Shown: positions 1-22,718, counted from the stretch's first letter. The stretch is 64,000 nucleotides of DNA from a virus (IMGVR_UViG_3300046779_001841:192001-256000); one strand, 5' to 3'. Made by a program: numbers and translations. The notes: generated by a model from the sequence alone, not told the origin.

Positions 1-1351
1 GATTAGTAGATGTGTCATTTGAAATCTCTACTTCTCTTTCACTGGAAATATTATCTTCGATTAGGCTTTCCCAATCATCTTCTTTCTCAACTGTGACTTG
101 AAGATTTTGAAAGCTAAAAGAGATCGTATCATCAATTAAAATAGGTTCTGCTTTTTTAAGAAATTTAGACATCAAATAAGCATTAGCTTTCATTTCTTGA
201 TAAATTTGATAAGCATTTTTATCCGCAGTGCTTTGAATTTTGCCAAAATTTTCACTATATAGAACTGCTATGTTCTTATTGTTTTCTTCTTGGATCTTTT
301 TAACTTCTTCAGTCATCTCTGGACTGTTAGTGAAAGATACCGAATCATAATATGAAAGTTCATTAACAAGATCTTTAACTTGTTGAAAAACAAATTCATC
401 GTCTACATCCAATTCATTTATTGATGATGGTGTTAAACTTAAAAAAATATCAGTAGAGATAAAAACACCACTTTCTATTTCAAAATGAGAACTCGTTTCA
501 TCAAAACCAGAAAACTTTTCCATAAGTTTCTTAATTTTAGCTTTCTTGATAATCTCTTGTTTATCACTTTTATTTGGAACAAAAGATGTATGATATGCGA
601 CTTCTAAAGTATCATCTGTTTCTTTTATCGTTTCTGTGAAAGCACCATTTTTTGACAATTCTAGTTTCATTAATGATTTTTCATATTCTATATACTTTTG
701 TTTGATCTGCTGGATATTTTCAGATTGAACTTTTAAATTACTCTTTTTAGGTTTGATTGTGAAAATATCATATTTTAAACCTTGTAGTGTTGTTCTTGAT
801 TCCACTTCAATATTTAAATCTCTAATTTTAGCAACTACTTGTATCCATTTAGATACAAGTTGCATAGTCTTTTTGAAAAAGGATTGCAACATCAATTCTT
901 TGTTCATTTTGATTGCATCTAAATAAACTTTTTCAAAATAAGTATCTTCATCTTTCATTGCTTGTTCGTGTGATGCTTTCATCTTTTCTTCAACAAAAGA
1001 ATCTGTTCGTCTAGCAAGTAAATTTAATTCTTCCCAGATCGCATTTAATTCACTTTCAAGATCACCTTTTTGTAGTTTGATACGATAATAAATAAAGCAA
1101 GATTTCAAATCTTCATAAAAATCCCATTTAATCACATCGTCTTTTTTAGATTGCATTTTTTCTTTGAAGTAATTCACAACATAGTCATCTAAGCCAATTA
1201 GTTGTTCATAATATGTGAAAACAAATTTGCCTTCTTTAGGTAAACGACCTTTAAGAACATTGCTACCATGATTATAAATTTGAATTAAAAATTGTCCCTT
1301 AAAAGGGTTCATACTTCTATTTGGATTATTTACAAGTTTTACCACTGGCAT
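1..1351 (-). CDS. Giant SNF2-family polyvalent protein, paralog C (N-terminal ~450 aa; runs off the left edge, absent from the ORF track)
   Basis: ATG at 1351 gives MPVVKLVNNPNRSMNPFKGQFL, matching the starts of 1682..8107 and 8193..14465. The frame is open in the stretches I translated and ends ...VTVEKEDDWESLIEDNISSEREVEISND, aligning with VTVEKLSDEMVDAIPGVEREIELSDD of paralog A. Confidence 0.85.
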   Translation of the reverse strand, partial: MPVVKLVNNPNRSMNPFKGQFLIQIYNHGSNVLKGRLPKEGKFVFTYYEQLIGLDDYVVNYFKEKMQSKKDDVIKWDFYEDLKSCFIYYRIKLQKGDLESELNAIWEELNLLARRTDSFVEEKMKASHEQAMKDEDTYFEKVYLDAIKMNKELMLQSFFKKTMQLVSKWIQVVAKIRDLNIEVESRTTLQGLKYDIFTIKPKKSNLKVQSENIQQIKQKYIEYEKSLMKLELSKNGAFTETIKETDDTLEVAYHTSFVPNKSDKQEIIKKAKIKKLMEKFSGFDETSSHFEIESGVFISTDIFLSLTPSSINELDVDDEFVFQQVKDLVNELSYYDSVSFTNSPEMTEEVKKIQEENNKNIAVLYSENFGKIQSTADKNAYQIYQEMKANAYLMSKFLKKAEPILIDDTISFSFQNLQVTVEKEDDWESLIEDNISSEREVEISNDTSTN

Positions 1352-1410
1352 TTTTATCAAATCCTTTGTTTTGTTTTTAATAACATACAAAGGATTTGAT
1401 AATTTAAAAA

Positions 1411-1680
1411 CTATTCACCATCTTCTGGCAAGATAGGATTTAAAAGTGCTTTATAATCTACAAGAATATCATCATACATTGGAATACGAAATCCATTATC
1501 TCTAAACTTTAAAGCGAAAGCCTTATGAATAGTTGTGATCTCATCCATTGTTAAACCATCTTCTGTAAGCATATCAATGAAGTTTTGTGTACCTGCAAAC
1601 TTTGCTTGAACAATTAAATCTTCATCTGCAATTTGGGAAACATATAAAACCCATTCTTTAAGTGTTTTTGGTTCTGACAT
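1411..1680 (-). CDS. Small acidic hypothetical protein (89 aa)
   Basis: ORF starts 1 nt after the stop of the 2141-aa gene and fills the gap before paralog C. Confidence 0.75.
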   Translation of the reverse strand: MSEPKTLKEWVLYVSQIADEDLIVQAKFAGTQNFIDMLTEDGLTMDEITTIHKAFALKFRDNGFRIPMYDDILVDYKALLNPILPEDGE

Positions 1681-1681
1681 T

Positions 1682-4600
1682 TTATTTGCCTTTCTTTTTA
1701 GTAAATGGATTTGAAACAGGTTTCAAATCACCTTTTAATACAGAAATTTCTTTTTGAATTTCTTTAACTTTTTCTTCATTTGCAAGTTCTTGATCAATAG
1801 AAGAAAGAAGTTCGCTATCTTGTTCTGCACTCTCAGCCATCATTTGTTCATAGGATTGAAATTCTTCATCTGCAAATTTCTTTTTTGCCACACGAATATT
1901 TGATGCTTCAGGATTTCGTTCTTTCCATGTTCTAATTTTCTTTAACAACTCTATTCTTTTACTTTCTTCCATTTTTAAAAGAACATCTTTCAAGTCTTTA
2001 CTATAAGACTTGAGAATTTGAATTTGGTCAGATTTTGGTAAACGACCAACACTTGGCAAATCGTCTTCAAAAAATCTTCTCCAGCAATTTTCTCTTGTTG
2101 TGTTAAAAGGTTCGACTGGTGATGCTAGATATTGTTCTAGTGTTTCAAATCCTGCTTCTTTAGCTTTTTGGTTCATATATTTTGTTAGTTTCTTATATGA
2201 CTTAGAATTTGAATTTAAATCTAGTTCATAATGTTGTGAAGATCCATATCTCTTCCAATATTCTTCACCTGCTCTAAAAGTTTTACCATTCTCATCTCTT
2301 GATGTTATATCATATAAATCTACAATATCAATATAACCATTGGGTGAGATTTTACCTGATTTTTGAATAATATAGGCCGCCTTAGCATATCTTACATCAT
2401 AAGCAGTTGCACCATCATTTCCCAACCAATTTTTAATCTCTGATGAATAGACACCTGCCTGAATATCAGATCTAATTTCTTTTAGATCTAGCGAAAACGC
2501 ATTTATAAATTTATATGATTCAGCTTCAAATCTTTGCTTTTCAGCATCATAATTTGCAAGACTTTGATTATAAATCACCATTGCTTGATTGTACTCTTCC
2601 ATTTTCACTTCATATTCAGCTAACTTTCTTGAAAAATCAATATTGGCTTCTTCTGTTCTTTGAACAGCAAGATCATATACATCTTGAATCTCTGCTTGAT
2701 CCAAGGGTCTTTTTGTGTCTTGAATCTTATTAAAGAGTGTTATTAATACAGAATTTTGTTGAGTCAATAGAGGTGTTACAAACTGATTAAAAAGATTTAA
2801 TCGGTTTGTAAATTCATTCAACGCACCTTGTCTTTGAGTATTATTATAATGAACCATATAAGCACGATCTCTATGGTCATAAAATCTACCACTTCCTGGT
2901 TCTAGTGTCATTGGATCGATTGTATTAAATGTTGTAAGAGGATATAAATTGTTTCTATATGCTTGATTGATAACAAGTCTTAGATTAATATGTTTTTCTT
3001 TTTCTTCATCTATATTTCTTTTGGCGAAATACATATAATTAAGAAAATCAGAAACATTTGATCCAAGACTACGCTCAATGCGTCTTTTTAATTCATCATA
3101 ATTACTCACACCAAAAATCCCTATTGCTAAAGATTTTTTTTGTTCCAACATTGCATCACCTGTAGATCTTTGTCCAATCAAAGTATTTGGATCTATACCA
3201 GTAGTTATTCTTTCGGGTCTTACAGGTTTTTGTGGTTGAACAGGTACAACCAAATTAAATGTAGTATTACTAACACTCGAAGATCCTAATTTTTCTATTA
3301 CCATCTTTTCAAACTTTTTTGCTCTTTCTTTCATAGAATCCACCTGTATTCCAACTTGAGCATTATAACCGAATTTTGGCCATACATAATATCCTATAAA
3401 CTCATTAGTTTCTGATAGACCTGTTTCTGGATTAAAAGAACCCCAACCACCTGCACCTAAAGTTTTTAAAGTAGATTTACCTTCTTTTTTCATGGATATA
3501 AGTTGAGTGAATAAAGCACGATTGCCTATACTATTTGGCGCACACTTAGATGTTTTAAAGATGTTGTTCTTTACATAATCATTATTAATAGTTCTTTCCA
3601 TAGTAAGAATCCAATCACCATAACTAGAAGCATTCCCATAGTTAAATTGAATATGTTCAGGTGCGACATTTGCAATACCAGAAAGACCCATTAAATCTAC
3701 AGTTTTCTTTGAAGATGCACTTAAATTTTGGAAACTTGGATGATTAAAACGATTTGGATCTAGTTGTGTATATTTGACTGGATCTTCTCTTAATCCTCTT
3801 TCTCTTTCTTCTATCTTTAATTGCATTTCTCTAGTAGGTGCTAATGCTCTAGCAAAATTTTCCAAGTTTGGTTTAGTTGCCTTTTCAGTAACTTTACTAT
3901 GTTCAATACTATCATAATTTGCAGATAAATTAATCGCACCACTTGTAGTGATAATATCACTGAAAAACTTTTGATCTACTTCATGTACAAGTCCTCTTAA
4001 TTTATCTATTGTAATATCTCCTGCCATCTCTTGTGGCATCACTGCATCTACCATTACTTCAATTACTGCATCTTCTTGTCCTTGTCTAAAAGCACGAGCA
4101 GTCCTTTGCTTTAATTCTTCACTATCCCACCCATCTCTATCTAAATGCACAACAGCCTTAAATTGTTGTAAATTAAATCCTCTTGCATAAGATGAGTTCG
4201 CTACCATTGTTGAAACTTGATTATTCTTAGCAATAAATTTCTTTACTGTATTTACTGCCCAAGTCATATCTTCTTCTTGTGGTTCAACTGTTGCGGCCGC
4301 AGTTCTTCCCATTCTCTTTTCAATTTGTTCTGTAGTCAAACCTGCTTGTTCTAATCTTTCTTTGATTTGTTCTTCAGTAAGTTCTTTTACCATGAAATTT
4401 TGAATCTTGGTCTTCTTTGTTACACGACCTTTTGTTAAAGGCTTACCTGCTTGATAGAACACAATCGCATTTGATAAACAAAGAGCATGGACTTTGGTTG
4501 GGATTCTTAAAGACAATTTAATAACTGTTTTCTTTGCAACATCATTATCTTCTGTGAAATACAATGTTCTCTTAGGTGCATTCCCTGTTAAGAATTGAAC

Positions 4601-7600
4601 TGCAAGTTCTTCAGCTTGATCTATCTTTGGATTACTGAAAGTGTATTCTTTAGGTGGATTACCTTTCATCTTATTAAACTTTTCCATTGCTTTATGTGGG
4701 TTCAAACTGAACATATGCAAGAGAGAAATCTTATCTTTCAAATTACCGACTGCAAAATCTTTTTCTCTTTGTACAGATGCTGGGATTTCTTCTATTGGTG
4801 TGTCCGCCAATAATAAAGAATATCTATCTTTAATCTGGTTCATTTGAACAGAGATAATATCTGAAATTTCTTTATAAGCAACTGCCACTTCTTTTGGCAT
4901 ATTCACATTTGTTGTCAATTTTTGTAATGGTTGTAAAGCTACTTGACCTGCTTCTTCATAATCAACATCCATCTTATCTGCAAAATAAGCATTTTGTTTC
5001 ACCCAGTTATTAAATTGATGTCTTACTTCAGGTTTAACACCTACAAACTTGCCACCAATATTTACTGCATACTTATCCATAAATGCTTTTTCTTTAGTAG
5101 GATCGACTGGATTACCTGTTGATAAAGAAACAAATCTAAACAAATCCATAGGTGATTTTTCTAAAGCACTACCTGTTAATAAAATCTTTCTTGGATGTTT
5201 TACATTACTGATAGCTTGTGCTTTCTTTCCTTTAAGTGCTTCATTGACTTCATCAAAGATCATGCAATAATATTGTTTGAAATCAGCACCTTCTTCATAC
5301 ATTCTAACAAATTCGGTATATCCAATTTCTGTTGTTCGATTTGTTAAATTTTCAGCTACTGCTTCTTCTAAGAAGAATTTCAATTCACCCATGAAGTTAC
5401 CAACAAGACGATCTGGACCCACAATTAAAAACTTTGCATTTGGTTTTTCTTTACTTGCAAGTTGCATAGATGCAACACCAACTAAAGTCTTACCAACACC
5501 AGTATCTAATGCCATCACACCTTTAAGACCATTAGATTGTAACCATGCTAATGCTTCAATTTGTTTATTGTTAAACTTTAATGGTTTATTTGGCAATACT
5601 TCTGCTTTGAAACCACCGATTGCTTGTGGTGTAAATTTTGCTAAATTCTCTGGTTGTAAAGCACGATCTTTTTGTAAAAGCATCTTGTAGTATTTTTGTA
5701 ATTCTTCATGTGCTTTCTTAGACATTAAGCATGAACCAAGACAATCCTTGATAGCTTCATAATCATCACCTTCAAAATAGAAAGACCACCTGCGTTTTTC
5801 ACTACCAGGAACTACTTCCATTGATGCTCTTGTGTCGGATAATTTTTTAATCGCTTTTCTTTCTGGAGTATGTTTAATATCATTTGGCAAACCAATTAAG
5901 AAACGATCTCTTGCCCATGTAATATATGGTTCTTCTAAAGCATCATAATTTACTTTTACTTCACCACTATCTGTTTCGATACTTTCATAAATAGATACAA
6001 TCTCACCATTTGAACTTACAGAATAACATTTACCATCACCTGTTAATCTACCTGTTGCATTTGCCAAGTCTTCAACAGAAAATCCTTTAAAGGGTCCTCT
6101 AGTAATAATATCTTTAGTGATACCATTAATAGTAGTAGTCTTTACTTTGACCATGTGTGCAAATTTTAATGGATTTGTTCTTTTAACTGCAGTATCGTCT
6201 GATAATTCAATTTCTCTTTCAACACCAGGAATAGCATCTACCATTTCATCAGATAACTTTTCTACAGTTACAGATGGTATATTTAATTTAACTTCTGTAA
6301 AGATTGGAATAGTGTTGTTTAAAGAATCCAACTTTGGATTGCCATCACTACCCATTTCAATTTCTTGAACTGGTTGTCCATCTACCATTAAAACATTTCC
6401 TGCATTGTCTTTCTTATATACAGGCACTTTTTTAATATGTTTAAAGACGAGTTCGTGTTTCTTTACTCTTTGACCTGCTTCATTTGTAACAGTTCTTGTA
6501 ACAATCTCTGGCAAAGCATCTCTTATACTCTTATTCTTCAAATCGCTTTCTAAACGCTTTTGTTGATAAACTTCATAAGCACTTAAACGATTTTCACCTT
6601 CTATAGTGCCAAGATGTTGACTATAAATGATATTTGCTTTCTTTAAAAACTCTTCTTGTTTTTCTTTGATTTCTTGTTGAAGTGTTTTCCCATTCACGAT
6701 AGAATTTGGTTTTTCTAATTCTTTTAATTTTTTATAAGCATCAGAAATGTTTTTCTTCTTATCGTTTAACCATTCTTGTCTTTCTTGTTTTTTGGCTTGT
6801 GCAAAATTTACCCAAGACATAAGATCTTCATATCGTTCTTCTGTCTTAAGAACAGCAGAAAGGTTATTAAAAATCTCTTTATATGGTTCAAGTTCAATAT
6901 CAAAGCCCTGTGCATTAAACCATTGTTTCAAAATAAATTGATATTTACTCGCACTATCAATCTTTGATTGTTTCAATTTAGTCAATAAAGATTTTAGTGA
7001 AAATTGAACACCTGTTGGAATGCGAGGAGATATTAGATAATAATTCATTTCAATATAATTATAGATTGTTAAATCAAATTTATCGTTTTTCTCAATAATT
7101 GATTGGATGAATAAGCCTACTTGAGAATACCTTCTTTCAGTTTCTTCTTTAAGACTTCTTGTTATGGCTTTTTGATTAAAAGATAGTGCTTTATCAAGTG
7201 CAACAGATTCAGTGTCTGTAGTAAAATCTATACCTGTACCTGCTCTTGTCATGAGAGCAAGTACAGCATCGTTTTCTATAAACTTTTTCTTTCTTTGTTT
7301 TAAAACATCAGATGGAGAGATATTTTGTTCTTTATTGTTGAAATAGAGATCTAACATATCACCATCAACAGATTTATAATCTGTATATGCACCACTTCTT
7401 GATAGTTTGTCTTTAATCAAAGATTGTTCATATTGTGAATACTTTTCTTTGAGTTCTCTTACTCGTTCAAGTTGTAATACTGCATCTGTTTTTGTTTCAT
7501 GTAATGTGAAAACATCAAATTTAGCACCACTTGTTGTAAATTTCTCACTAATTTCATATGGAATATTTTTAGCTTTACAAACTAACTGAATCCATGCAGA

Positions 7601-8107
7601 CAATAATCTTAAACTTTCCTTGAAGAATGGCTTCTTATTCAAGGTCTTGATCATTTCATATGCAGGTGATGTAACAGTTTCTAATTTTGCATCTGGATCG
7701 TTTGTAAAATTTGTCCAAATCTTCTTTAATTCTTCTTCAATAAAAGCATCCACTTTATTGACTTGAATACGCAAATCAGTCCAAATATCTGTTAAGACAT
7801 CATCATCTTCTCTATTGATGAAAAAAGTCTTATACCACAAATATGCTTTTGCCAAATTCTCATCCAAAGGATACTTGGAAAAAGAAGTATCTATCTTTTT
7901 AGATGCTACTTTTTCTGTTAATTCATCAATCAGATATTCTTCAAGTTCAATCAATTCTACATAATGATTAAACAAATAAGCACCTGCACCTTGTACTTTA
8001 CCTTTGGTTTGGTCATTTCGACTTGGATTTTTGACATACCATAAGAATTGACCCTTAAATGGATTTCGACTTCTATTTGGATTACTGATAAGTTTTACAA
8101 CAGGCAT
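1682..8107 (-). CDS. Giant polyvalent protein, paralog A: SNF2/SF2 helicase-ATPase with intact motifs plus GNAT-like domain (2141 aa)
   Basis: Motif I ALDTGVGKT, II FDEVNE, III LLTGS, V SSYARGFNLQQ, VI QRTARAFRQGQ. Downstream is APNSIGNRALFTQL...IGYYVWPKFGYNA, a GNAT-like pattern. Confidence 0.8.
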   Translation of the reverse strand: MPVVKLISNPNRSRNPFKGQFLWYVKNPSRNDQTKGKVQGAGAYLFNHYVELIELEEYLIDELTEKVASKKIDTSFSKYPLDENLAKAYLWYKTFFINREDDDVLTDIWTDLRIQVNKVDAFIEEELKKIWTNFTNDPDAKLETVTSPAYEMIKTLNKKPFFKESLRLLSAWIQLVCKAKNIPYEISEKFTTSGAKFDVFTLHETKTDAVLQLERVRELKEKYSQYEQSLIKDKLSRSGAYTDYKSVDGDMLDLYFNNKEQNISPSDVLKQRKKKFIENDAVLALMTRAGTGIDFTTDTESVALDKALSFNQKAITRSLKEETERRYSQVGLFIQSIIEKNDKFDLTIYNYIEMNYYLISPRIPTGVQFSLKSLLTKLKQSKIDSASKYQFILKQWFNAQGFDIELEPYKEIFNNLSAVLKTEERYEDLMSWVNFAQAKKQERQEWLNDKKKNISDAYKKLKELEKPNSIVNGKTLQQEIKEKQEEFLKKANIIYSQHLGTIEGENRLSAYEVYQQKRLESDLKNKSIRDALPEIVTRTVTNEAGQRVKKHELVFKHIKKVPVYKKDNAGNVLMVDGQPVQEIEMGSDGNPKLDSLNNTIPIFTEVKLNIPSVTVEKLSDEMVDAIPGVEREIELSDDTAVKRTNPLKFAHMVKVKTTTINGITKDIITRGPFKGFSVEDLANATGRLTGDGKCYSVSSNGEIVSIYESIETDSGEVKVNYDALEEPYITWARDRFLIGLPNDIKHTPERKAIKKLSDTRASMEVVPGSEKRRWSFYFEGDDYEAIKDCLGSCLMSKKAHEELQKYYKMLLQKDRALQPENLAKFTPQAIGGFKAEVLPNKPLKFNNKQIEALAWLQSNGLKGVMALDTGVGKTLVGVASMQLASKEKPNAKFLIVGPDRLVGNFMGELKFFLEEAVAENLTNRTTEIGYTEFVRMYEEGADFKQYYCMIFDEVNEALKGKKAQAISNVKHPRKILLTGSALEKSPMDLFRFVSLSTGNPVDPTKEKAFMDKYAVNIGGKFVGVKPEVRHQFNNWVKQNAYFADKMDVDYEEAGQVALQPLQKLTTNVNMPKEVAVAYKEISDIISVQMNQIKDRYSLLLADTPIEEIPASVQREKDFAVGNLKDKISLLHMFSLNPHKAMEKFNKMKGNPPKEYTFSNPKIDQAEELAVQFLTGNAPKRTLYFTEDNDVAKKTVIKLSLRIPTKVHALCLSNAIVFYQAGKPLTKGRVTKKTKIQNFMVKELTEEQIKERLEQAGLTTEQIEKRMGRTAAATVEPQEEDMTWAVNTVKKFIAKNNQVSTMVANSSYARGFNLQQFKAVVHLDRDGWDSEELKQRTARAFRQGQEDAVIEVMVDAVMPQEMAGDITIDKLRGLVHEVDQKFFSDIITTSGAINLSANYDSIEHSKVTEKATKPNLENFARALAPTREMQLKIEERERGLREDPVKYTQLDPNRFNHPSFQNLSASSKKTVDLMGLSGIANVAPEHIQFNYGNASSYGDWILTMERTINNDYVKNNIFKTSKCAPNSIGNRALFTQLISMKKEGKSTLKTLGAGGWGSFNPETGLSETNEFIGYYVWPKFGYNAQVGIQVDSMKERAKKFEKMVIEKLGSSSVSNTTFNLVVPVQPQKPVRPERITTGIDPNTLIGQRSTGDAMLEQKKSLAIGIFGVSNYDELKRRIERSLGSNVSDFLNYMYFAKRNIDEEKEKHINLRLVINQAYRNNLYPLTTFNTIDPMTLEPGSGRFYDHRDRAYMVHYNNTQRQGALNEFTNRLNLFNQFVTPLLTQQNSVLITLFNKIQDTKRPLDQAEIQDVYDLAVQRTEEANIDFSRKLAEYEVKMEEYNQAMVIYNQSLANYDAEKQRFEAESYKFINAFSLDLKEIRSDIQAGVYSSEIKNWLGNDGATAYDVRYAKAAYIIQKSGKISPNGYIDIVDLYDITSRDENGKTFRAGEEYWKRYGSSQHYELDLNSNSKSYKKLTKYMNQKAKEAGFETLEQYLASPVEPFNTTRENCWRRFFEDDLPSVGRLPKSDQIQILKSYSKDLKDVLLKMEESKRIELLKKIRTWKERNPEASNIRVAKKKFADEEFQSYEQMMAESAEQDSELLSSIDQELANEEKVKEIQKEISVLKGDLKPVSNPFTKKKGK

Positions 8108-8192
8108 TTTAAACCCCTTTTCTTTCTAAAAAAAAGTAATCTTTCTATGATACATACATTCCATAAATTTAATAATTATTAAACCACCAACA

Positions 8193-11100
8193 CTATTTCT
8201 TTTTTCCAAATGGATTTGTTACTGGTTTCAAATCACCTTTTAATACTGATATTTCTTTTTCTACTTGTTTCACTTTTTCTTCATTCGCTAGTTGTTCATC
8301 TAAAGCAACCATCATATCGCTATCTTGCTCTGCCATTTCATACATCATTTGTTCATAAGTCTTTGTACCACTCTCTATTGAAGCAAAACGAATATTTTCA
8401 GTAATGCGATTGAGCATCTTCCATTTTTTAAAAGTTTCTAAAAACTCTCCTACATAATATTGAGTTTCATTCATAAGAACATATTTTAAATCATTGCGAT
8501 AAGCCTTAATTACTTGTAACTTTTCTTCTCTGTTCATTTTAATATTGCCATCATTCAAGAAAGAAATCCAGCAAGTAATCTTTTTAGTATTAAATGGTTC
8601 AATAGGTAAGGATAAGTATTCTTCCAAGTTTTCACAACCAGCTTCTTTGACTTTATGATTCACATACTTTGTTAGTTTTTTATATGACTTGGAATTTGGA
8701 TCTACACTTAACTCGTATTCTGTACCCGTACCTACAAATTTCCACCACTCTTCTCCTGCTTTAAAGATTTTCCCATCGGATTCTTTAAATGTTATTTCAT
8801 ATAAGTCTAAGATTTCTATCAAACGACTTATTTTATTTGATAATTTTAGATAGAACGCAGACTTAGCATATCTTACTTTCCACCAATCTTTACCATTTCC
8901 CAACCATGATTTAATTTCTGATGTATATACATCTGCATCAAGATCTGCTTGAATTTCTTTTTTATCTATTTTGAAACTTGAGATGTCATTAATTTTTTGT
9001 TGAAAAAATCCATTAAATTCTTTCTCATATCTTGCATGAATTTGTTCATATACACTCACTGCTTGATTATACTCTTCTAAATCTTTTTGATATTTCTCTA
9101 CTCTCTCATCATAGATTTTCATCGTTTCTTCATATTCAATATTATTTTCTATTTGCACTTGCTTCATGTCTTCATAAATAGGTTGCATTTCTTCTACCGA
9201 TAATGGCATATCGGTATCTTGGATCTTATTGAATAATGCTATTTTTTCTGGATAATTTTTCATCAATGGTGTTGCAAAAAAATCCCATTGACTATTTAGT
9301 CTTTTTTCCCTTTCTATATCCTGTAAAACAGCATTGTGTAATTGCCAATCTACCATATCTTGAGGATATTTAGGTGTTTCTGTTTTTTTGAGATTCTTTT
9401 TATGAAAGGGAAAAAATTGTATTTCAAATCCAGAATAATAAGCAATTCTATTTTCTATATGATATGCTACATCTTCTGAATAGTTCTTTTTTTTAAAATA
9501 TCCATAATCTCTTACAATTTTAAAATCATCTTTTGCAAATTGAGAACCCATAGCACCTAGTCTTTGATCAACATATAAAGCAAATGCACGAACAGTTTTT
9601 TGTGGTGTAGTCGAAGCCAGTATCGCTTTTAATTGTAATTGTTTTCTTTCTTCACTAGAACCACTATTTGTCATCAATTCTTCTATGTCTAAATCTAATT
9701 CATAGTTTTCTTTGTATGGTCGTTCTCCTACATCTAGTGGATCAGGTGCTATGGGTTTTACTCCATCTGTAATCGCTTCAGTCCATTTTAATTTTTGGCT
9801 TACCATCTTTGCAAAGATGTTCGCAAATTCTTCTATTTGATCTAAATTAAGAAGAACTTCAGCATTATAACCAAATTTCGGCCACACATAATATCCTATG
9901 TAATTTTGACCTTTTGCTTCTCCTGTTTCAGGATCAAAAGAATTAAAACTACCTGCACCTAAACAAGCGATAGCATCTAATTTAGCTTTTTTGACTGCAA
10001 CAAGTTGACTAAATAACACATGAGTTCCTAATCCATTTGGCGCACAATAATTTGTTGTAAAAGCATCATTCCAAATATAATTCTCACCATAATATTTTCT
10101 TCTATCTGTACCATGTAGTGTAGTAATCCAATCTCCAACAGATTTCATTTCATTTTCTCTATCCGATGTCAATCTAAATTTAATATGTTCTGATGCAATA
10201 TTCGTAATACCTGTAAATCCTGTTAAATCTAGCATTTCTTTTTCATGTTCTGATAGATTTTCCATCGATGGATGGTTAAAACGATTTGGATCTAATTGTG
10301 TATATTTAATTGGATCTTCTCTTAATCCTTTTTCTCTCTCTTCTATCTTTGCCAACATTTCTCTTGTTGGCAATAATGCTCTAGTAAAATTCTCTAAATT
10401 CACTTTCTTGCTTGTTGTTAATTTTTCTATCGCTTCATATTTTTTTGTCAAATCCAAAGCACCACTTTCTCTAAGAATTTCACTAAAGAACTTTTGATCT
10501 ACCTCTTGCACTCGATCTCTTAGTTCATCTATTGATGTTGATCCTCCTACCACTGCATCCAAGATATATTCTGTTACAGGTTCTTCTTTTCCTACACCTT
10601 GTAGTCTTGCAGTTCTTTGCTTTAATTCTTCGCTATCCCATCCATCTCTATCTAAATGCACCACTGCATTGAATTGTTGTAAATTAAATCCCCTTGAATA
10701 AGATGAATTGGCAACCATCGTTGCGACTTGATTATTCTTAGCAATAAATTCCTTTACAGTCTTTACTGCCCAAGTTACATCTTCTTCTCCTATTTCATCT
10801 TCTTCTCTTGCCACTCTTCTCATTCTATCGTCTATCTCAACTTGTGATAATCCAGACCTTGACAAATTCTTTAGAATTTCTTCATCTTTAAGTTCTTCCA
10901 ACATAAAATTTTGAAGTTTGGTATTCTTATTCACAACACCTTTCTTTAAAGGCTTTCCTGCTTGATAAAAGACAATACTATCAGATAAACATAGTGCATG
11001 GATCTTGGTCGGTATTCTTAATGAAATCTTAATGATTGTCTTTTTTGCCACATCTGCATCTTCAGTGAAATATACTGTTCTCTTTGAATTTTCTACTAAA

Positions 11101-14100
11101 TGAACTGCAAGTTCTTCAGCTTGGTCAATTTTAGGATTACTGAATGTATATTCTTTTGGTCTATTTCCTTTTAATCTATCATACTGCACCATTGCTTTAT
11201 GTGGATTTAAACTAAATAGATGTAGTAATCCAATCTTATCTTTCAAGTTTCCTAATGCAAAATCTTTTTCTTTTTGTAAATCAGCTGGCATATCCATCTG
11301 GTTGAAAGAAAGATTAGAATATCTAACTGACATCTCTGTTAAAACTTCTTGAATTTCTTGAGCAATATCTTGATATGCACTCGCTACTTCGTCTGGCATA
11401 TTTACAGTTTGTGTTGTTTTATATAGATTTGTATAAATATACTTTTCCATAAAATGAATGTTTTGTTTCATCCATGTATAAAACTCATCTTTCACTTCAG
11501 GTTTAATGCCTACAAACTTACCACCTATCTCAACTGCATATTTCTCAACAAATGCTTTCTCTTTGTCTTTATCTACTACATTTCCAGTCGATAAATATAC
11601 AAGCCTAAATAAATCCAAAGGTGAAGATTGAATTGCACTATCTGTTAATAAAATCTTTCTTGGATGTTTTACATTTGTAATCGCTTCAACTTTATCACTA
11701 TTCATTTCTATATTCGCATCATCTAACACTAAACAATAATATTGTTTGAAATTAAAGTTTTGCTTATATCTCTGGATATATTCCGAATATCCTATCTCTT
11801 CTATGCTTTGTCTTAAATTAAAAATATAAAGATATTCTATATATTCTTCTATTCCAGAGATATATGAACCTACAAAACGATCTGTATTTACTATTAAAAA
11901 CTTCACATCAGGTAGCTTCTGTGTTGCAAGTATCAAACTTAATATAAAAAAAATCTTATTCTCTCCATATTCTCTAGGTAGTGATACAACTCCTTTGTAA
12001 TCATTTTTCTCTAACCATGCTAAAGCATTAATCTCACCTGTTGAAAACGCTAAGTATGGATTAATTCCTTTTAATTTTTCTTCTTGATAGTTTTCTCTCT
12101 CAGTAATACTTAATTTTAATTTTAACATCTCATAATACTTACGCAACTCTTCATGTGCTTTCTTAGACATTAAACATGAACCTAAACTATCTTTTATCAC
12201 TTCATAATCACTACCACCAAAATAAAAAGATAGATGACTACCTGCAACCATCTCCATTGATGTTCTATACCGAACTAAATTTTTTAATGTCTTAATTTCT
12301 GGTGCATACTTCTTATCTTTTGGCAAACATATCAAGAAACGATCTCTTGCCCAAGTAATATATGGTTCTTCTAACACATCAATATTTACTTTTACTTCTC
12401 CACTATCTATATCTATACTCTCATACCTAGACACTATCTCACCTTTTGTATTCATAGAATAACTTTTACCATCACCTATGATGCGACCTGTAATATTTGA
12501 TAAATCTTCAACAGAAAATCCTTTGAAGGGTCCTCTAGTAATAATATCTTTAGTGATACCATTAATAGTGGTGGTCTTTACCTTCACCATGTGTGTAAAT
12601 CTTAATGGATTATCTGTATGATCGTCTGATAACTCGATTTCTCTTTCTACACCAGGAATAGCATCTATCATTTCATCAGATAGTCTATCTACTGAATATG
12701 ATATTGTATCTAAGACTACATCTTTAAATACTGGTATAAGATTGCCTTTACTATCAAGTATGGTTTCTTGAACAGGTTGTCCATCTACCATTAAAACATT
12801 TCCTGCATTGTCTTGCTTATATACAGGTATCTTGTTTAAGTTTCTAAATACCAATTCATGTTTCTTTACTTTTTGACCTGCTTCATTAACTGTTCTTGTA
12901 ACAATCTCTGGCATATTGTTTTTTGAAAATGTTTTTCGTAATTCACTTTTCAATTTAATTTGCAGATAAACATCATAGGCACTTTGATTATAGTCAGGTT
13001 CGATCACACCAAATTTTTCACTATATATAGTTTTCGCTTTCTTTAAATACTCTTCTTGTTTCTCTTGAACTTCTTGTTGAAGTGTTTTCCCATCTACAAC
13101 AAGACTTGAATTTTCAAATTTTTTCAATTTTTGATAGAAGGATTGTACATTTTCTCTTACTTCATTAAACTTTTCATCTTCTCTTGCTTTTACACTACGA
13201 GCATAAGATTGCATATCAAGAAGGATTAAAAAATCATCTTGTGATGGTATTATATCTTTCAACATTAACCAAGTATTGGTATGTGGTTCTTGATTTATAT
13301 TCCAACCTTGTTCTGCCATCCATTCTGTTAAAATATCATAATAAGCATCTGCACTACCTATTTTAGATTTTCTCAATTTACCCATCAAAGATTTTTGTGC
13401 GGATACACTACTAAGTAGTTTTTTATTGACTATCCTATATTCAATAAAATTGAGAATGGACACAAACATTTTATTTTGTATCGCAAATCTTAGATTTTTA
13501 GTCATTTCACTATCTTGTTTTGAACCTATTTCACCTATACAAGCCGACCAAACTCGTTCGTTCTTTTCTCTTTCTAAAAATGAAATTGCTTCTTTCTCAC
13601 TAGATAATAATCTTTCAGATGTCATTCTATATTCATTTGAAAAATCTATTTCATCTCTTTCATTTACTAGATTGCTAATATATGTTTGTTTTCTTTCTTT
13701 GATTAGATCTTCTCTTTTCACTTGAATATTCGTTTGATCAAAATACAATTCCAAGAAATCATCATCAAGTCTTTTTGTTTGTGTAAATGCACCTGTTCTT
13801 AATAATTTCTCTTTAATCAAAGATTTCTCATACTCACTATATTTCTTTTTGATCTCTTTTACTTGTTTTACTTGCACATCCACAGGCACTGATTTACTTG
13901 ATACCTTGAAAGTATCAAATTTTGCACCACCAGGTAAAATTCTTTCGGTAATCTCATATTGAATATTTTTATATTTGCATACCAACTGAATCCATGCAGA
14001 CATCAGTTTTAAACTTTCCTTGAAGAATGGCTTCTTATTCAAAGTATTGATAAAAGGATAGATCTTCTCTTTTATATAATTATCACCAGTCCAAATCTTC

Positions 14101-14465
14101 TTCAATTCTTCTTCAATGAAAGCATCTACTTTGTTGATATTGATTCGCAAATCAGTCCAAATATCTGTTAATTCATTATCGTATTCTTCATTCTTAAAGA
14201 AAGTCTTATACCATAGATATGCCTTAGACATATCTTCATCCAAAGGATACTTTGAAACATTTGTAAAATCACCATTTTCTACTTTTTTTGTTAAGTAGTC
14301 ATTAAGATGATCTTCAAGTTCAATCAATTCTACATAATGATTGAATAAGAAATTCCCAGCACCTTGCACAACACCATTATTATGGTTTCGCATAGCGAGT
14401 AGGAATTGACCTTTAAATGGATTTAAACTTCTATTTGGATTACCAATAAGTTTTACAACAGGCAT
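8193..14465 (-). CDS. Giant polyvalent protein, paralog B: degenerate (pseudo) SNF2 ATPase plus GNAT-like domain (2090 aa)
   Basis: Collinear with paralog A. Motif I reads SLPREYGENK, II LDDANI, III LLTDS and VI QRTARLQGVGK. APNGLGTHVLFSQL...IGYYVWPKFGYNA is retained. Confidence 0.8.
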   Translation of the reverse strand: MPVVKLIGNPNRSLNPFKGQFLLAMRNHNNGVVQGAGNFLFNHYVELIELEDHLNDYLTKKVENGDFTNVSKYPLDEDMSKAYLWYKTFFKNEEYDNELTDIWTDLRININKVDAFIEEELKKIWTGDNYIKEKIYPFINTLNKKPFFKESLKLMSAWIQLVCKYKNIQYEITERILPGGAKFDTFKVSSKSVPVDVQVKQVKEIKKKYSEYEKSLIKEKLLRTGAFTQTKRLDDDFLELYFDQTNIQVKREDLIKERKQTYISNLVNERDEIDFSNEYRMTSERLLSSEKEAISFLEREKNERVWSACIGEIGSKQDSEMTKNLRFAIQNKMFVSILNFIEYRIVNKKLLSSVSAQKSLMGKLRKSKIGSADAYYDILTEWMAEQGWNINQEPHTNTWLMLKDIIPSQDDFLILLDMQSYARSVKAREDEKFNEVRENVQSFYQKLKKFENSSLVVDGKTLQQEVQEKQEEYLKKAKTIYSEKFGVIEPDYNQSAYDVYLQIKLKSELRKTFSKNNMPEIVTRTVNEAGQKVKKHELVFRNLNKIPVYKQDNAGNVLMVDGQPVQETILDSKGNLIPVFKDVVLDTISYSVDRLSDEMIDAIPGVEREIELSDDHTDNPLRFTHMVKVKTTTINGITKDIITRGPFKGFSVEDLSNITGRIIGDGKSYSMNTKGEIVSRYESIDIDSGEVKVNIDVLEEPYITWARDRFLICLPKDKKYAPEIKTLKNLVRYRTSMEMVAGSHLSFYFGGSDYEVIKDSLGSCLMSKKAHEELRKYYEMLKLKLSITERENYQEEKLKGINPYLAFSTGEINALAWLEKNDYKGVVSLPREYGENKIFFILSLILATQKLPDVKFLIVNTDRFVGSYISGIEEYIEYLYIFNLRQSIEEIGYSEYIQRYKQNFNFKQYYCLVLDDANIEMNSDKVEAITNVKHPRKILLTDSAIQSSPLDLFRLVYLSTGNVVDKDKEKAFVEKYAVEIGGKFVGIKPEVKDEFYTWMKQNIHFMEKYIYTNLYKTTQTVNMPDEVASAYQDIAQEIQEVLTEMSVRYSNLSFNQMDMPADLQKEKDFALGNLKDKIGLLHLFSLNPHKAMVQYDRLKGNRPKEYTFSNPKIDQAEELAVHLVENSKRTVYFTEDADVAKKTIIKISLRIPTKIHALCLSDSIVFYQAGKPLKKGVVNKNTKLQNFMLEELKDEEILKNLSRSGLSQVEIDDRMRRVAREEDEIGEEDVTWAVKTVKEFIAKNNQVATMVANSSYSRGFNLQQFNAVVHLDRDGWDSEELKQRTARLQGVGKEEPVTEYILDAVVGGSTSIDELRDRVQEVDQKFFSEILRESGALDLTKKYEAIEKLTTSKKVNLENFTRALLPTREMLAKIEEREKGLREDPIKYTQLDPNRFNHPSMENLSEHEKEMLDLTGFTGITNIASEHIKFRLTSDRENEMKSVGDWITTLHGTDRRKYYGENYIWNDAFTTNYCAPNGLGTHVLFSQLVAVKKAKLDAIACLGAGSFNSFDPETGEAKGQNYIGYYVWPKFGYNAEVLLNLDQIEEFANIFAKMVSQKLKWTEAITDGVKPIAPDPLDVGERPYKENYELDLDIEELMTNSGSSEERKQLQLKAILASTTPQKTVRAFALYVDQRLGAMGSQFAKDDFKIVRDYGYFKKKNYSEDVAYHIENRIAYYSGFEIQFFPFHKKNLKKTETPKYPQDMVDWQLHNAVLQDIEREKRLNSQWDFFATPLMKNYPEKIALFNKIQDTDMPLSVEEMQPIYEDMKQVQIENNIEYEETMKIYDERVEKYQKDLEEYNQAVSVYEQIHARYEKEFNGFFQQKINDISSFKIDKKEIQADLDADVYTSEIKSWLGNGKDWWKVRYAKSAFYLKLSNKISRLIEILDLYEITFKESDGKIFKAGEEWWKFVGTGTEYELSVDPNSKSYKKLTKYVNHKVKEAGCENLEEYLSLPIEPFNTKKITCWISFLNDGNIKMNREEKLQVIKAYRNDLKYVLMNETQYYVGEFLETFKKWKMLNRITENIRFASIESGTKTYEQMMYEMAEQDSDMMVALDEQLANEEKVKQVEKEISVLKGDLKPVTNPFGKKK

Positions 14466-14536
14466 TTTACCAAGTCCTTGAATTTTATACTTGAATGAAG
14501 ATTATTTTAAACAATAGGATATAAATATAAATAGTA

Positions 14537-14917
14537 TTAAATCTTTTCGATCTCATTTGTAATGGATAATTTATCTGTTCTATCCATCATAAACCATTCA
14601 ACACTCACTGGTTCAAATTGTGCAAATTTACCAAATACTGTTTCTTTATCAAATTCTTTACATGAATATACATCTAATTGAATAAGACCAGGACTATCTT
14701 CATCCCACACATGAATTGCAATATGTGATGTTTCAATAATTGTAACAGCTGTTAAACCTCTGTTGCCTGCTTTGTCTAAATACACTGCATGGGGTCCACT
14801 TAAAATTTTCATATCAATCGCATTGATTAAATCTTTTAACCATGTTTCAATAATATCTGTTGCCATAGGTGGCTTATTTACATAAGCACGGATTACGATA
14901 TGTTGATGTTGTAACAT
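14537..14917 (-). CDS. speD: S-adenosylmethionine decarboxylase proenzyme family (pyruvoyl-dependent)
   Basis: GLTAVTIIETSHIAIHVWDE (self-cleavage Ser) and IQLDVYSCKEFD; 126 aa fits class 1b AdoMetDC. Confidence 0.85.
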   Translation of the reverse strand: MLQHQHIVIRAYVNKPPMATDIIETWLKDLINAIDMKILSGPHAVYLDKAGNRGLTAVTIIETSHIAIHVWDEDSPGLIQLDVYSCKEFDKETVFGKFAQFEPVSVEWFMMDRTDKLSITNEIEKI

Positions 14918-14976
14918 CTATACCTTCTTTCTTAAAAAATGTTTTTTTAAGATATACAAAAAAGTTTTAATCATTA

Positions 14977-15408
14977 TTAAAATTCTAACATTCTTACTAC
15001 AATATATCCTCGCCTCCATGCTTCAATTAAATTTCTCTTTATTAAATTCATATCACCATCTACAATAAAACACTCTGGACAATCTTTATTCCTAAAATCA
15101 CACTTATTCGTATATGATGGACAACCTTTCTTTTCTACACATACACTATTCTTTATAGGCACTAATTTCAAACATCCTTTTGGATCTCTTAATCCACTCT
15201 GCATTAAACTTTTTGCATCACCTCTTAATGCACGATCTATATCTTCTTCTGATAGAACAGGCACTAACTTTTCCCAATCTTTTTCTTTTTCTAAGTCTTT
15301 ATACTCACCCCAATTACTATCATCTTTTGGTATTATTCTAGCTAGTTTTGGATTGCCATATCTTTCATCTGGTATCACACAAAAGATCATTCCATTTTCT
15401 CTATACAT
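14977..15408 (-). CDS. Hypothetical protein with Cys cluster
   Basis: 143-aa ORF in a tight operon, with C-terminal CLK..CVEKKGCP..CDF..CPEC. Confidence 0.7.
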   Translation of the reverse strand: MYRENGMIFCVIPDERYGNPKLARIIPKDDSNWGEYKDLEKEKDWEKLVPVLSEEDIDRALRGDAKSLMQSGLRDPKGCLKLVPIKNSVCVEKKGCPSYTNKCDFRNKDCPECFIVDGDMNLIKRNLIEAWRRGYIVVRMLEF

Positions 15409-15777
15409 TTAATTGTATCCTTTTTTCTTTTCTTCTATTTCTTTTACTGATTGCTCCACCATGTCTTGATCAAATATATCATGATCTGTAATTTGTTCTA
15501 AGACTTTCTTACTCGCACATAAGATATAAGATAAAATCTTTGTTTGATTTTCATCATTATTCACAATCAGTTTATGGTGTGGCAAAATATGAAACACATT
15601 TAATAACTGACCAATCTTAATCCATACTTTTAAAAGATCTTCTTCATTATCAAAATCGTTTGAACCAAAATAATATGTTTGTGCGAGTTGGCTTATTAGA
15701 TACTCAAATCCATCTTGATTAAATACATTGCTTGGCAATAAATCTCTATCATCTTCATTCTTGTCTTTCATTTTCAA
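15409..15777 (-). CDS. Hypothetical protein (probable ATG start at 15771)
   Basis: ORF overlaps the end of the primase zinc-finger gene and abuts the next gene. Confidence 0.7.
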   Translation of the reverse strand: MKMKDKNEDDRDLLPSNVFNQDGFEYLISQLAQTYYFGSNDFDNEEDLLKVWIKIGQLLNVFHILPHHKLIVNNDENQTKILSYILCASKKVLEQITDHDIFDQDMVEQSVKEIEEKKKGYN

Positions 15778-16279
15778 GTTTCCTGTATATCTTTAACCAT
15801 AGTTCTGGATCTGTTTTTTTGGCAAACAATAAAAAATCGACTGCTTCCCACAACTTTAAACATTCCTTTAAAGATAATACTTTTTCTTTTGAGATTCTTG
15901 ACAATTTATTTATTGTTTTTGTTTGCCAATCTACATCTTCATCTTCAAGATCGGTATCTTGAAACACATCTGGCTTTTCATATTCTTTCCATTCGCTTAA
16001 TCCAAATTTCTTTTCTAGCATCCTACAAGCGATACCAAAATCTACACCTTCTTTTTCCATTACTGTTGAAACAACATCTCTTACTTTTCCACAAGCAAAA
16101 CAATACCATGTTTTTGTTGAATGATAGTATCTAGCACTTGGCTTTGTATCTACACCACTACCATGCAAATCACATGAAAATTGTTGATCTGCACCATTTG
16201 TTCTTACATTATATCCATATGCACTTAGAATTTGGTCTAGTGGTACTTGATTTTTAAGTCTTTCTGCTCTTTTACTCAT
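15755..16279 (-). CDS. DNA primase CHC2 zinc-finger domain protein without TOPRIM domain
   Basis: FSCDLHGSGVDTKPSARYY...WYCFACGKVRDVVSTVMEKEGVDFGIACRML is the CHC2 pattern; the protein is only 174 aa. Confidence 0.8.
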   Translation of the reverse strand: MSKRAERLKNQVPLDQILSAYGYNVRTNGADQQFSCDLHGSGVDTKPSARYYHSTKTWYCFACGKVRDVVSTVMEKEGVDFGIACRMLEKKFGLSEWKEYEKPDVFQDTDLEDEDVDWQTKTINKLSRISKEKVLSLKECLKLWEAVDFLLFAKKTDPELWLKIYRKLENERQE

Positions 16280-16523
16280 CTTCCCTTCCTATAAATACAT
16301 TGTTAGAATTGACCCATGTGTGTTTTGGCAATGATCTTATACTAAATAAGATCATAGACTTTCTTATATTATCAGAATATATATAATAACCTTTTCCTTG
16401 TATATCACCAATACCATTTCTTTTTTGTGTAGATGATGTACTTGATAGAAATGTTGTAAATTGTTTAGCTGAATACAAACTATTAGTATCCCAATAAATA
16501 AAACAAAAAGGGTAGTTATCCAT
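16272..16523 (-). CDS. Tandem ~82-aa paralog 3 (FIGRE family)
   Basis: Shares RKSMILFSIRSLPKHTWVN..FIGREDE with both neighbours. Confidence 0.8.
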   Translation of the reverse strand: MDNYPFCFIYWDTNSLYSAKQFTTFLSSTSSTQKRNGIGDIQGKGYYIYSDNIRKSMILFSIRSLPKHTWVNSNNVFIGREDE

Positions 16524-16796
16524 TCACTCATCTTCCCTTCCTATAAATCTATCATGGTCAGTTATCCATGTGTGTTTAGCTAAAGACCTTATGGCAAATA
16601 AAGTTATTGATCTTCTTAGGTTTTCTATATTATTCTCATATATAAGGACACCTTTACCTTTAATCCTATTATCTTTATGTTGCATAGTATGGGTAGAGAA
16701 GATACTTGTATATTTTTTAGCATGGTATATGTCGTTATTCTCATAATACACAGAGAAGATAGCTTTAGACATAGGTGTTATTCCCTTCCTATAAAT
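16274..16796. repeat. Direct repeats at the 3' ends of the three tandem paralogs (~250-bp period)
   Basis: actcatcttcccttcctataaat at 16274-16296 and 16526-16548; ttcccttcctataaat at 16781-16796. On the minus strand the repeat encodes FIGRE and provides a GGAAGG Shine-Dalgarno for the next gene. Confidence 0.85.
16524..16772 (-). CDS. Tandem ~82-aa paralog 2 (FIGRE family)
   Basis: RRSITLFAIRSLAKHTWITDHDRFIGREDE. Confidence 0.8.
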   Translation of the reverse strand: MSKAIFSVYYENNDIYHAKKYTSIFSTHTMQHKDNRIKGKGVLIYENNIENLRRSITLFAIRSLAKHTWITDHDRFIGREDE

Positions 16797-17023: not shown

Positions 17024-17043
17024 AGTGTTTATTCACTTTCTCA

Positions 17044-18552: not shown

Positions 18553-18564
18553 TTGTAAAAAGCC

Positions 18565-22669: not shown

Positions 22670-22718
22670 TATTTTTTTGTATGATTAAGATGACGATCTA
22701 TAAACGGAGAATATTAAA

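Follow-up and report, generated by a model that had tools for sequence, protein, structure and literature searches.

Does a phage gene that has lost the catalytic residues of its ATPase, and that lies beside an intact copy of itself, represent a duplicate in decay or a protein that has kept a role without its motor? The question is raised by a tandem array of giant SNF2-family genes on the minus strand of a 64,000-nucleotide stretch of viral DNA (IMGVR_UViG_3300046779_001841:192001-256000; hereafter the window), which corresponds to G000:C1:192001-256000 of a 316,221-bp virus record that is complete according to CheckV. In the gene order B, A, 89-aa gene, C, the array consists of two long paralogs, a gene for a small acidic protein, and a third paralog that continues beyond the window (Table 1). 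An original prediction, made from this stretch before any database had been searched, proposed that an intact ATPase is paired here with a pseudo-ATPase. The pairing is borne out and extended, since C is a second pseudo-ATPase, and the giants are read here, with a probability of about one half, as an unannotated jumbo-phage family (roughly 1,950-2,260 residues) of the polyvalent conflict-effector type in which motor-less paralogs have been retained.

The relationship among the three giants is evident along their whole length. Translations of A, B and C confirm that these consecutive genes begin with a common peptide (MPVVKL..NPNRS.NPFKGQFL), and the end-to-end collinearity proposed for A and B holds over 2185 alignment columns at 49% identity. 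Paralog C, which is represented in the window by an open-ended open reading frame (ORF) at 2-1390 (-), was completed from the genome (L007:9736-15351, 1871 aa); its identity to A is about 35-40%, and its motor is dead as well. A whole-genome search returns exactly three giant paralogs, and the MPVVKL-type N-terminal peptide was not found on any other ORF of the genome. Genes B, A and C are also seen, nearly identical, in contigs of four other metagenome runs, and the array is thus real DNA in natural populations rather than an assembly artefact of one sample. The sample labels of the runs that hold it are mostly freshwater or aquatic, with one marine, and none of the public RNA runs holds the stretch. 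A contig of depth 3.2 in run X3 joins window position 3313 to 9855 with 39 foreign letters between them, which links A at about codon 1598 to B at about codon 1537; the flank on one side is only 35 letters, and this junction could be an A/B recombinant that deletes 6.5 kb or a chimera from the assembly of paralogs.

Comparison of the motors was based on an alignment of the giants with 14 relatives found by sequence in databases. Paralog A has the full SNF2 set (NNKQ..AWL, DTGVGKT, FLIVGPDRL, DEVN, LLTGSA, NSSYARGFNLQ and QRTARAFRQGQ), including the motifs I, II and VI that had been recognized at the outset, and all motifs are present in 14 of 14 relatives (NNKQ..AWL, DTG[VI]GKT, DE[VI]N, LLT[GA]S, NSSYARGFNLQ and QRTARA[FY]R.GQ). 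In B, the reported loss of the Walker A lysine, the Walker B glutamate and a motif VI arginine is upheld, with the refinement that the missing arginine is the second one and that the first is retained; the Q-motif has also gone, with STGE where A has NNKQ. Paralog C is degenerate in a different manner, displaying SDNYDKM at motif I, where the glycines and the threonine are gone, and DH at motif II, and it is without motifs II, III and VI. The same type of remnant (S/N-D-N-Y-D-K-M, followed by DH or DY, with motif VI absent) is shared by C and its orthologues.

Profile searches place the three proteins accordingly. Paralog A exceeds the Pfam cut-offs for PF00176 SNF2-rel_dom (29.9 bits; cut-off 24.9), PF00271 Helicase_C (24.1; 23.5) and PF04851 ResIII (22.6; 22.5), and its core matches the PDB chains of HELLS, SsoRad54 and SMARCA5 by sequence; it is predicted to be a canonical, intact SNF2 ATPase. 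Paralog B reaches Helicase_C only, at 17.1 bits and under the cut-off. For C, a Pfam scan of the first 463 residues gave no SF2 (helicase superfamily 2) family match, and the whole protein has no NCBIfam match at an expectation value (E) of 0.01 or less. As judged from alignment, B and C are SNF2 members by descent, not by profile. In addition, B is net acidic, with a total charge of -32, an isoelectric point (pI) of 5.7 and a negative charge on every ATPase segment, whereas A is basic (pI 8.4), which hints that B may bind DNA less well than A does.

The absence of catalytic motifs is what would be expected if B and C were decaying duplicates, functionless pseudogenes in the making, and the long branch of B in the family tree, together with its confinement to one phage and near-identical strains, points in the same direction. 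Synonymous sites are saturated among A, B and C (about 50% amino-acid identity), and so branch rates and kept residues were analyzed in place of codon-based ratios of nonsynonymous to synonymous change (dN/dS). With P0006 as outgroup, the rate of B relative to A is 16x in ATPase lobe 1, 1.2x in the first 200 residues and 1.1x at the C-terminal end. When the positions that are invariant in all intact family members are considered, B keeps 5/5 in the first part of the GNAT-like domain described below, 9/9 at the C-terminal end, 38/42 in lobe 2 and 26/42 in lobe 1, and what it has lost is exactly motifs Q, I, II and VI. Paralog C keeps the same 5/5 and 9/9, with 18/42 in each lobe. Between the window and L012, divergence is 0.62 for the C-type orthologues and 0.54 for the intact giants of the same two phages, the ratio of the two being 0.9 in the GNAT-like, insert and C-terminal parts and 4.6 in lobe 1.

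This distribution argues against decay, in that the losses of B are limited to the ATP site while its N-terminal, GNAT-like and C-terminal parts change at the rate of an intact copy. Frames of 2090 and 1871 codons are, moreover, still open in a genome of 30% G+C (the window has about 31%) after some 50% amino-acid divergence, and B carries an AP.G.GT segment that is nearer to the consensus of the wider family than is the corresponding motif of A. Among the 40 single-nucleotide polymorphisms (SNPs) listed from four other samples, 7 of 12 are synonymous in B, 10 of 20 in A and 3 of 8 in C, a share that is not lower in B than in A; the listed insertions and deletions mostly preserve the frame, either singly or as compensating pairs. 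These population data, a small sample, weakly favor retention of B. Decay is therefore very unlikely, and B and C appear to be held under purifying selection. The relaxed selection that would mark B as a simple casualty of duplication is not apparent: its frame is intact, its excess of change is local to lobe 1, and C-type copies are intact in three phages.

Relatives place the array in a family whose copy number ranges from one to three, most members having one intact giant. At 14 of 14 IMG/VR loci there is one giant ORF (at least 600 aa) with an intact motif I, and each of four IMG/VR records that were searched whole, including a complete 376-kb genome, holds a single copy. The order A-type gene, small gene, C-type gene is found in three genomes (the window, L012 and L031), with C-type orthologues at L012 16802-22732 and, as P0021, in L031. 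Paralog B is known only from the window phage and near-identical strains, and an IMG/VR search with B alone returned no B-type orthologue. A maximum-likelihood tree places B next to A as its sister (Shimodaira-Hasegawa-like approximate likelihood-ratio support, SH-aLRT, 99), on a branch of 0.72 as against 0.22 for A, and the C-type copies form a separate clade with a long stem; this topology points to two duplications, the older giving rise to C and the younger to B. A tblastn search of 50,697 phage records gave no match to A or to its GNAT-like region, and the giant is absent from the 485-kb uncultured phage LR745208.1, though the SNF2 helicase there is 56% identical. In one IMG/VR relative (L014 9938-15834), the giant is interrupted toward the 3′ end, which leaves ORFs of 1891 and 74 aa, but it is whole, at 1969 aa, in two near-identical records; a frameshift error or a recent lesion is the probable cause of the split.

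The part of the giants that survives loss of the motor most completely includes a domain whose predicted structure resembles that of GNAT acyltransferases. Both halves of A that flank the motor were modeled, and the AlphaFold2 model of residues 1420-2141 (ma02880f99aea; mean predicted local distance difference test, pLDDT, 80) displays an alpha/beta core with matches to afdb_clusters rows named GNAT or N-acetyltransferase (probability 0.96-0.99), to the PDB structures 3tcv, 1yre, 2z0z and 1y9w (Z 5.2 over 103-134 residues), and to Acetyltransf_1 clusters in the atlas (template-modeling, TM, score by hit 0.50-0.54; root-mean-square deviation 3.5-4.5). Strands and helices occur in the GNAT order, and there are motif-A-like (AP.G.G..L..Q) and motif-B-like (GYY.WP.FGY) segments. 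The alignments cover model residues ~31-565, and the fold is thus interrupted: the spacing from WP.FGY to WW is 338-377 aa in the giants versus ~39 in short family members. The insert responsible is about 300-340 aa long across the giants (some 290 in A), is helical according to the secondary structure of the model and, along with residues 201-480, is the fastest-evolving part of the protein. At the cofactor-loop segment, the wider family has AP.G.GT, B has APNGLGT, and A and C have APNS[IL]GN. None of the Pfam GNAT models matches any of 16 giants, and the assignment is accordingly made at the level of fold; three homologues of the domain do reach Pfam Acetyltransf_1 (PF00583). Overall, a GNAT-like fold in the C-terminal half is predicted with moderate confidence.

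The N-terminal half of A offers fewer clues. Its model comprises the conserved peptide, which is disordered, a four-helix bundle (~35-183), helical regions and a beta-rich region (~531-740), and fold searches with these 840 residues recovered a generic four-helix bundle only, nothing informative; a PDB sequence profile search with the N- and C-terminal halves of A was equally uninformative. Two possible functions of the N-terminal peptide were considered and set aside. The GQFL.. segment matches the QL.L.L-type motifs of sliding-clamp-binding peptides loosely; as to a general targeting signal, the peptide is confined to the three giants and differs from the leader that is shared by a set of small proteins of the same genome (see below).

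The company kept by the GNAT-like domain is informative about the sort of protein in which it resides. A profile of the domain recovers 474 proteins (E<=1e-3) among 1.84 billion cluster representatives (50% clustering), 120 of which were scanned with Pfam. Nine of these carry Phage_Mu_F, three ADPrib_exo_Tox, two ATLF and five SNF2; Portal_Mu, Phage_portal and Phage_portal_3 are found once each, and single homologues have Zeta_toxin, DRAT, Peptidase_C39, Peptidase_C70, Peptidase_M91, SprT-like, InPase, LigT, RNase_T or HipA_C. P0100 and P0140 have a true MuF minor head domain on the N-terminal side of the GNAT-like domain, and in P0140 this MuF half is similar to annotated minor head proteins that adjoin portal genes. 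Two further carriers reside among genes of the accessory or counter-defense type (ADP-ribosylglycohydrolase, RtcB, Tpt1, Acb2/Tad1-like and ClpS). The proposed link of the giants to polyvalent, conflict-type proteins is backed by these fusions to MuF, portal, ADP-ribosyltransferase (ART) and zincin domains. Ten homologues of the domain gave no match in PHROGs. A separate case is the P0022 locus (203,955-bp contig), where a 976-aa protein with three tandem GNAT-like domains and no SNF2 motor is placed after a clamp-loader gene, a NusG-like gene and a 202-aa gene, the position that the giant occupies in a distant marine clade; it may be a motor-less positional counterpart of the giant.

A GNAT-like fold attached to a DNA motor could also serve to modify DNA. 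Phage GNATs of this kind are known, namely Mom and a GNAT that is accompanied by an ABC ATPase and predicted to acylate a nucleobase (PMC7824862), and the commonest polyvalent pairing in one survey is that of SNF2 with a DNA-modifying domain (PMC5512222). The array might thus be a processive machine, analogous to DarB, in which a Mom-like enzyme of GNAT fold is carried along phage DNA by the SNF2 motor and acylates bases there, perhaps using the product of the AdoMet-decarboxylase-like (AdoMet_dc-like) gene that is conserved directly upstream in the near clade of relatives, with B and C adding or reading other marks. However, the distant clade has no AdoMet_dc gene next to the giant, the majority of proteins with a GNAT-like domain are motor-less and resemble effectors that target proteins, and no specific similarity to Mom emerged from any search. 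Fast evolution and a hypervariable insert are also easier to reconcile with protein targets that change than with a DNA substrate that does not, and DNA modification is considered quite improbable as the function of the array.

The small acidic protein encoded between A and C is a constant companion of the intact giant. A gene of 84-90 aa follows directly in 12 of the 12 relative loci in which that end could be read, including those of the distant marine clade, where the identity of the partner falls to 28-31%. Identity between the partner in the window and those of relatives is otherwise 72-82%, and 14 positions are invariant down to the 28% level; no family from Pfam, PHROGs or NCBIfam matches it. 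In polymorphic toxins, the cognate immunity gene lies directly downstream of the effector gene, and the partner of the giants occupies just this position relative to an effector-like domain.

The genomic context of the array is conserved, whereas the giants themselves are not. In the near clade, synteny extends from an SNF2 helicase (~531 aa) through a 225-aa gene, DnaB, a primase Zn-ribbon gene, two small genes and the AdoMet_dc-like gene to the giant and its 84-90-aa follower. Between the window and these relatives, identity is 96% for DnaB, 92-95% for the SNF2 helicase and 88-95% for AdoMet_dc (75%, 84% and 76%, respectively, in L010, the most distant near-clade member), and the giant of the same phages is only 53-60% identical. 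This contrast in rate, taken with the changes in copy number, is of a kind typical of host-conflict genes. In the distant clade, whose giant is ~31% identical, the neighbors are clamp-loader, KOW/NusG-like and Sigma70_r4-like genes.

Such neighbors would also fit a different role for the giants, as intracellular machinery of replication, recombination or transcription that is neither injected nor an effector, with B and C as regulatory, non-catalytic subunits. An example would be a remodeler of forks or RNA polymerase, of the RapA type or substituting for UvsW, whose acyltransferase-like module regulates DNA-bound phage or host proteins. The conserved near-clade position beside DnaB, the primase Zn-ribbon gene and the SNF2 helicase would be natural for such a protein, as would the distant-clade neighbors; the genes of the array are co-directional with no predicted terminator between them, and a survey of jumbo phages casts SNF2 helicases as factors of recombination and RNA polymerase recycling (PMC7824862). 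On the other hand, the surrounding core replication genes show 88-96% identity between relatives, as against 53-60% for the giant, whose copy number also varies, and the same operon already contains a separate, well-conserved SNF2 helicase of 534 aa. Nor do the other carriers of the GNAT-like domain, which are fusions of the MuF, portal, ART and toxin types, suggest housekeeping. The machinery explanation is on balance unlikely. Consensus scans for promoters and terminators over positions 1-20000 performed no better than on shuffled sequence, and so no expression class is assigned.

The reading preferred here is that of a polyvalent conflict effector with retained motor-less paralogs. In this family, each giant comprises a conserved N-terminal peptide, some 800 residues of unassigned fold, a predicted SNF2 translocase of double-stranded DNA and a GNAT-like domain split by an insert. 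Paralog A would use ATP to track along DNA, thereby bringing its GNAT-like module to DNA-bound targets, which could be host or defense proteins or the DNA itself. It would act early in infection, being either delivered with the phage DNA or made from the replication-gene operon, and the small acidic protein might serve as its inhibitor, immunity factor or chaperone. The gene was duplicated twice, and the ATP site was lost from both duplicates, in which the GNAT-like module and terminal peptides persisted along with most of the scaffold. Since loss of the ATP site is accompanied by apparent purifying selection elsewhere, B and C may be motor-less effector or scaffold subunits of diverged specificity, which would act as partners of A in a hetero-oligomer or alone.

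Several observations weigh against this reading. The array stands at the end of a series of replication genes on the same strand (SNF2 helicase, DnaB, primase Zn-ribbon), and the clamp-loader, NusG-like and sigma-like neighbors of the distant-clade giant fit an intracellular role in DNA metabolism too. The giants are without the MISQKLASLEARIAKLE-type leader of at least 10 small proteins, a candidate capsid-targeting signal, and scans with Pfam and PHROGs detect neither a MuF nor a portal nor a peptidase domain in the giants themselves. The GNAT call is made on fold only in the giants, with middling scores (Z 5.2, TM 0.5), and the coenzyme A-loop motif of A and C is non-canonical (AP.S.G). Because no diverged genome contains a B-type orthologue by which selection could be gauged, we infer selection on B from branch rates, kept residues and the small SNP sample. 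Finally, a complex prediction for the C-terminal half of A (1420-2141) with the 89-aa protein returned a score of 0.00, a value that speaks neither for nor against binding.

The original prediction went further, to an injected, multi-subunit translocase complex, and both injection and the complex are treated here as hypotheses. In the most elaborate form, the three giants, probably with the 89-aa protein, would assemble into an asymmetric machine in which one live SNF2 motor carries two dead paralogs, a delivered remodeler-plus-acyltransferase complex that strips and modifies several DNA-bound host or defense proteins simultaneously. The subunits would then differ in the hypervariable insert of the GNAT-like module that each of them presents, and the division of labor would be analogous to that in RecBCD or AddAB, with an independent origin in the SNF2 family. 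So specific an arrangement is rather improbable. Translocase complexes with a paralogous dead helicase subunit are familiar from RecBCD (RecC) and AddAB (AddB), and the second cassette of Brr2 is inactive. As in these systems, an active motor of superfamily 1 (SF1) or SF2 is found here with a duplicated dead copy that would be kept as a scaffold or recognition subunit. The known examples are, however, cellular SF1 or Ski2-like proteins whose complexes have been solved, whereas the giants are SNF2 proteins, encoded by separate phage genes that each carry an effector-like module.

Similar comparisons can be drawn with phage proteins. The packaging of P1 DarB, a single-copy and catalytically intact protein, needs small accessory Dar proteins. 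Like DarB, a phage protein of more than 2,000 residues, the giants have an SF2/SNF2-like motor joined to a modifying enzyme, predicted in the present case; the partner domain of DarB, by contrast, is an N6-adenine methyltransferase, whereas Pfam detects no methyltransferase family in A or B, and NCBIfam none in A, B or C. No sequence relationship to DarB is detectable beyond the SF2 core, and, with no methyltransferase domain found in these scans, the giants are not regarded as relatives of DarB. DarB combines motor and modifying enzyme and is thought to act on incoming DNA, according to the survey cited above (PMC5512222). In the MuF polymorphic toxins (PMC5576092; Jamet et al., 2017), there is a more direct connection, in that the GNAT-like domain is the C-terminal cargo of the MuF proteins P0100 and P0140 and the giants also have a small gene directly after the effector gene; the giants differ in carrying an SNF2 motor and an N-terminus of ~800 residues instead of MuF. 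With the GNAT superfamily (including phage Rac and Mu Mom), the giants share the predicted fold and the motif-A-like and motif-B-like segments, but they have no GNAT profile match and their domain is broken by an insert of ~300-340 residues.

The closest general class is that of the polyvalent proteins of phages and conjugative elements, among whose listed components are both SWI2/SNF2 ATPases and GNATs (PMC5512222; Iyer et al., 2017). The giants resemble these proteins in their great size, in being phage-encoded, in combining unrelated enzymatic domains (SNF2 and GNAT-like), and in the links of the GNAT-like domain to MuF, portal, ART, zincin (ATLF-like), InPase and toxin domains; they are also fast-evolving and variable in copy number. 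They are unlike them in having no MuF, portal, peptidase or methylase domain (MuF PF04233 was not found by Pfam in A, in B or in the 463-residue window part of C), so that their virion and effector links run only through homologues of the GNAT-like domain, and in residing in a replication-gene operon rather than among late or structural genes. A PHROGs search that covered A, B, the 89-aa protein and as much of C as lies in the window gave two weak matches, both to families of unknown function. The accessible part of the survey contains no description of tandem arrays of intact and dead ATPases with a conserved small partner gene (PMC5512222). The best interpretation of the giants is that they form a new architectural family (SNF2 motor, split GNAT-like module and small partner) within the known polyvalent class.

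Table 1. Coordinates of the giant genes, their small partner and their principal segments, numbered from the first nucleotide of the window.
Feature	Coordinates	Strand	Remarks
Paralog B	8193..14465	-	2090 aa, ~243 kDa, pI 5.7; pseudo-ATPase, GNAT-like module and terminal peptides intact
Paralog A	1682..8107	-	2141 aa, ~245 kDa, pI 8.4; giant with intact SNF2 and GNAT-like parts
89-aa acidic protein	1411..1680	-	pI 4.3; start 1 nt past the stop of A
Paralog C, first 450/1871 residues	1..1351	-	gene ends outside the window at G000:187736
AdoMet-decarboxylase-like gene (context)	14537..14917	-	126 aa, directly upstream of the array; PF02675 E 2.4e-12
A, N-terminal 840 residues	5588..8107	-	model m205efc4f71d8, pLDDT 72
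A, SNF2 ATPase core, residues 841-1400	3908..5587	-	Pfam, motifs, PDB sequence matches
A, motif I	5486-5506	-	
A, motif II	5243-5254	-	
A, motif VI	4076-4108	-	
B, motif I remnant PREYGEN (family DTGVGKT)	11958..11978	-	Walker A Lys and Thr gone
B, motif II remnant DDAN (family DEVN)	11712..11723	-	alignment with 14 intact relatives
B, motif VI remnant QRTARLQGVGK (family QRTARAFRQGQ)	10587..10619	-	second Arg and Gln gone
A, GNAT-like first part, residues 1436-1630, CAPNSIGNRALF ... GYYVWPKFGYNA	3218..3802	-	model ma02880f99aea, fold and profile searches
B, GNAT-like first part	9738..10334	-	includes CAPNGLGT (fits consensus AP.G.GT) and WPKFGY
A, hypervariable helical, coiled-coil-like insert, ~290 residues	2348..3217	-	splits the GNAT-like domain
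A, residues 1921-2141	1685..2347	-	last GNAT-like part DL..G..WW..G.., helical C-terminal region, tail GDLKPVSNPF

Other features of the neighborhood and of the wider genome deserve mention. The AdoMet_dc-like gene, which lies beside the giant in the near clade and not in the distant one, also has a TIGR03330 match under the cut-off, and its identity of 88-95% applies to three near-clade relatives; possible roles include polyamine synthesis and the modification of DNA or protein. In the replication operon, the SNF2 helicase is a 534-aa protein at window 19230-20834 (-), and its counterpart in a 350-kb relative (L008 3816-5984) has 722 aa and an Intein_splicing match, which indicates that an intein has been inserted there. 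Between DnaB and the primase Zn-ribbon gene, ORFs of 83, 82 and 81 aa (window 16272-17023, -) gave no tblastn match in L008, L010, L012 or L013, and at the same place L031 has three small genes of 85, 84 and 67 aa; this is a variable islet within a conserved operon.

Divergent from the replication operon is a set of large genes with almost no family matches, at window 21896-37617 (+), 41910-47063 (-) and 48180-51662 (+). The run includes a 1261-aa protein, a 1554-aa ORF with a weak CHAP match and a 740-aa protein, which probably form a tail or baseplate module, followed by a 1717-aa protein with PKD/Ig domains and a 1160-aa UvrD-type helicase. The 1261-aa protein is 53-58% identical in relatives, and is thus variable like the giants. 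Elsewhere in the genome, beyond the window, the leader M-I-S-Q-K-L-A-S-L-E-A-R-I-A-K-L-E stands at the head of at least 10 small proteins of 124-221 aa and is followed by unrelated sequence; with its L.E sites, it resembles a capsid-targeting or propeptide signal of the T4 type, a candidate assignment. The genes concerned start at G000:C1 28367(-), 42003, 42407, 44926, 45846, 46492, 51904(-), 85232, 151262 and 152536. Repetitive overlapping ORFs of MIKMM/MIKIV units at G000:C1 ~103590-103760 (-) are probably a tandem DNA repeat, not a gene.

Phage-encoded combinations of a DNA motor with a modifying enzyme, for which DarB is the model, are among the least understood tools of anti-defense. The present family is seen in jumbo phages of fresh and marine waters, always with its small partner gene; apart from the generic SNF2 matches of A, it is absent from Pfam, and PHROGs does not list it by name. 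In one of these phages, the motor was inactivated on two occasions and the remainder of the protein retained, a natural experiment that separates the role of the motor from that of the GNAT-like domain. What distinguishes the three paralogs is chiefly the ATP site and two hypervariable regions, which makes A, B and C ready-made test constructs. The activity of the GNAT-like domain, once known, would annotate many phage cargo proteins.

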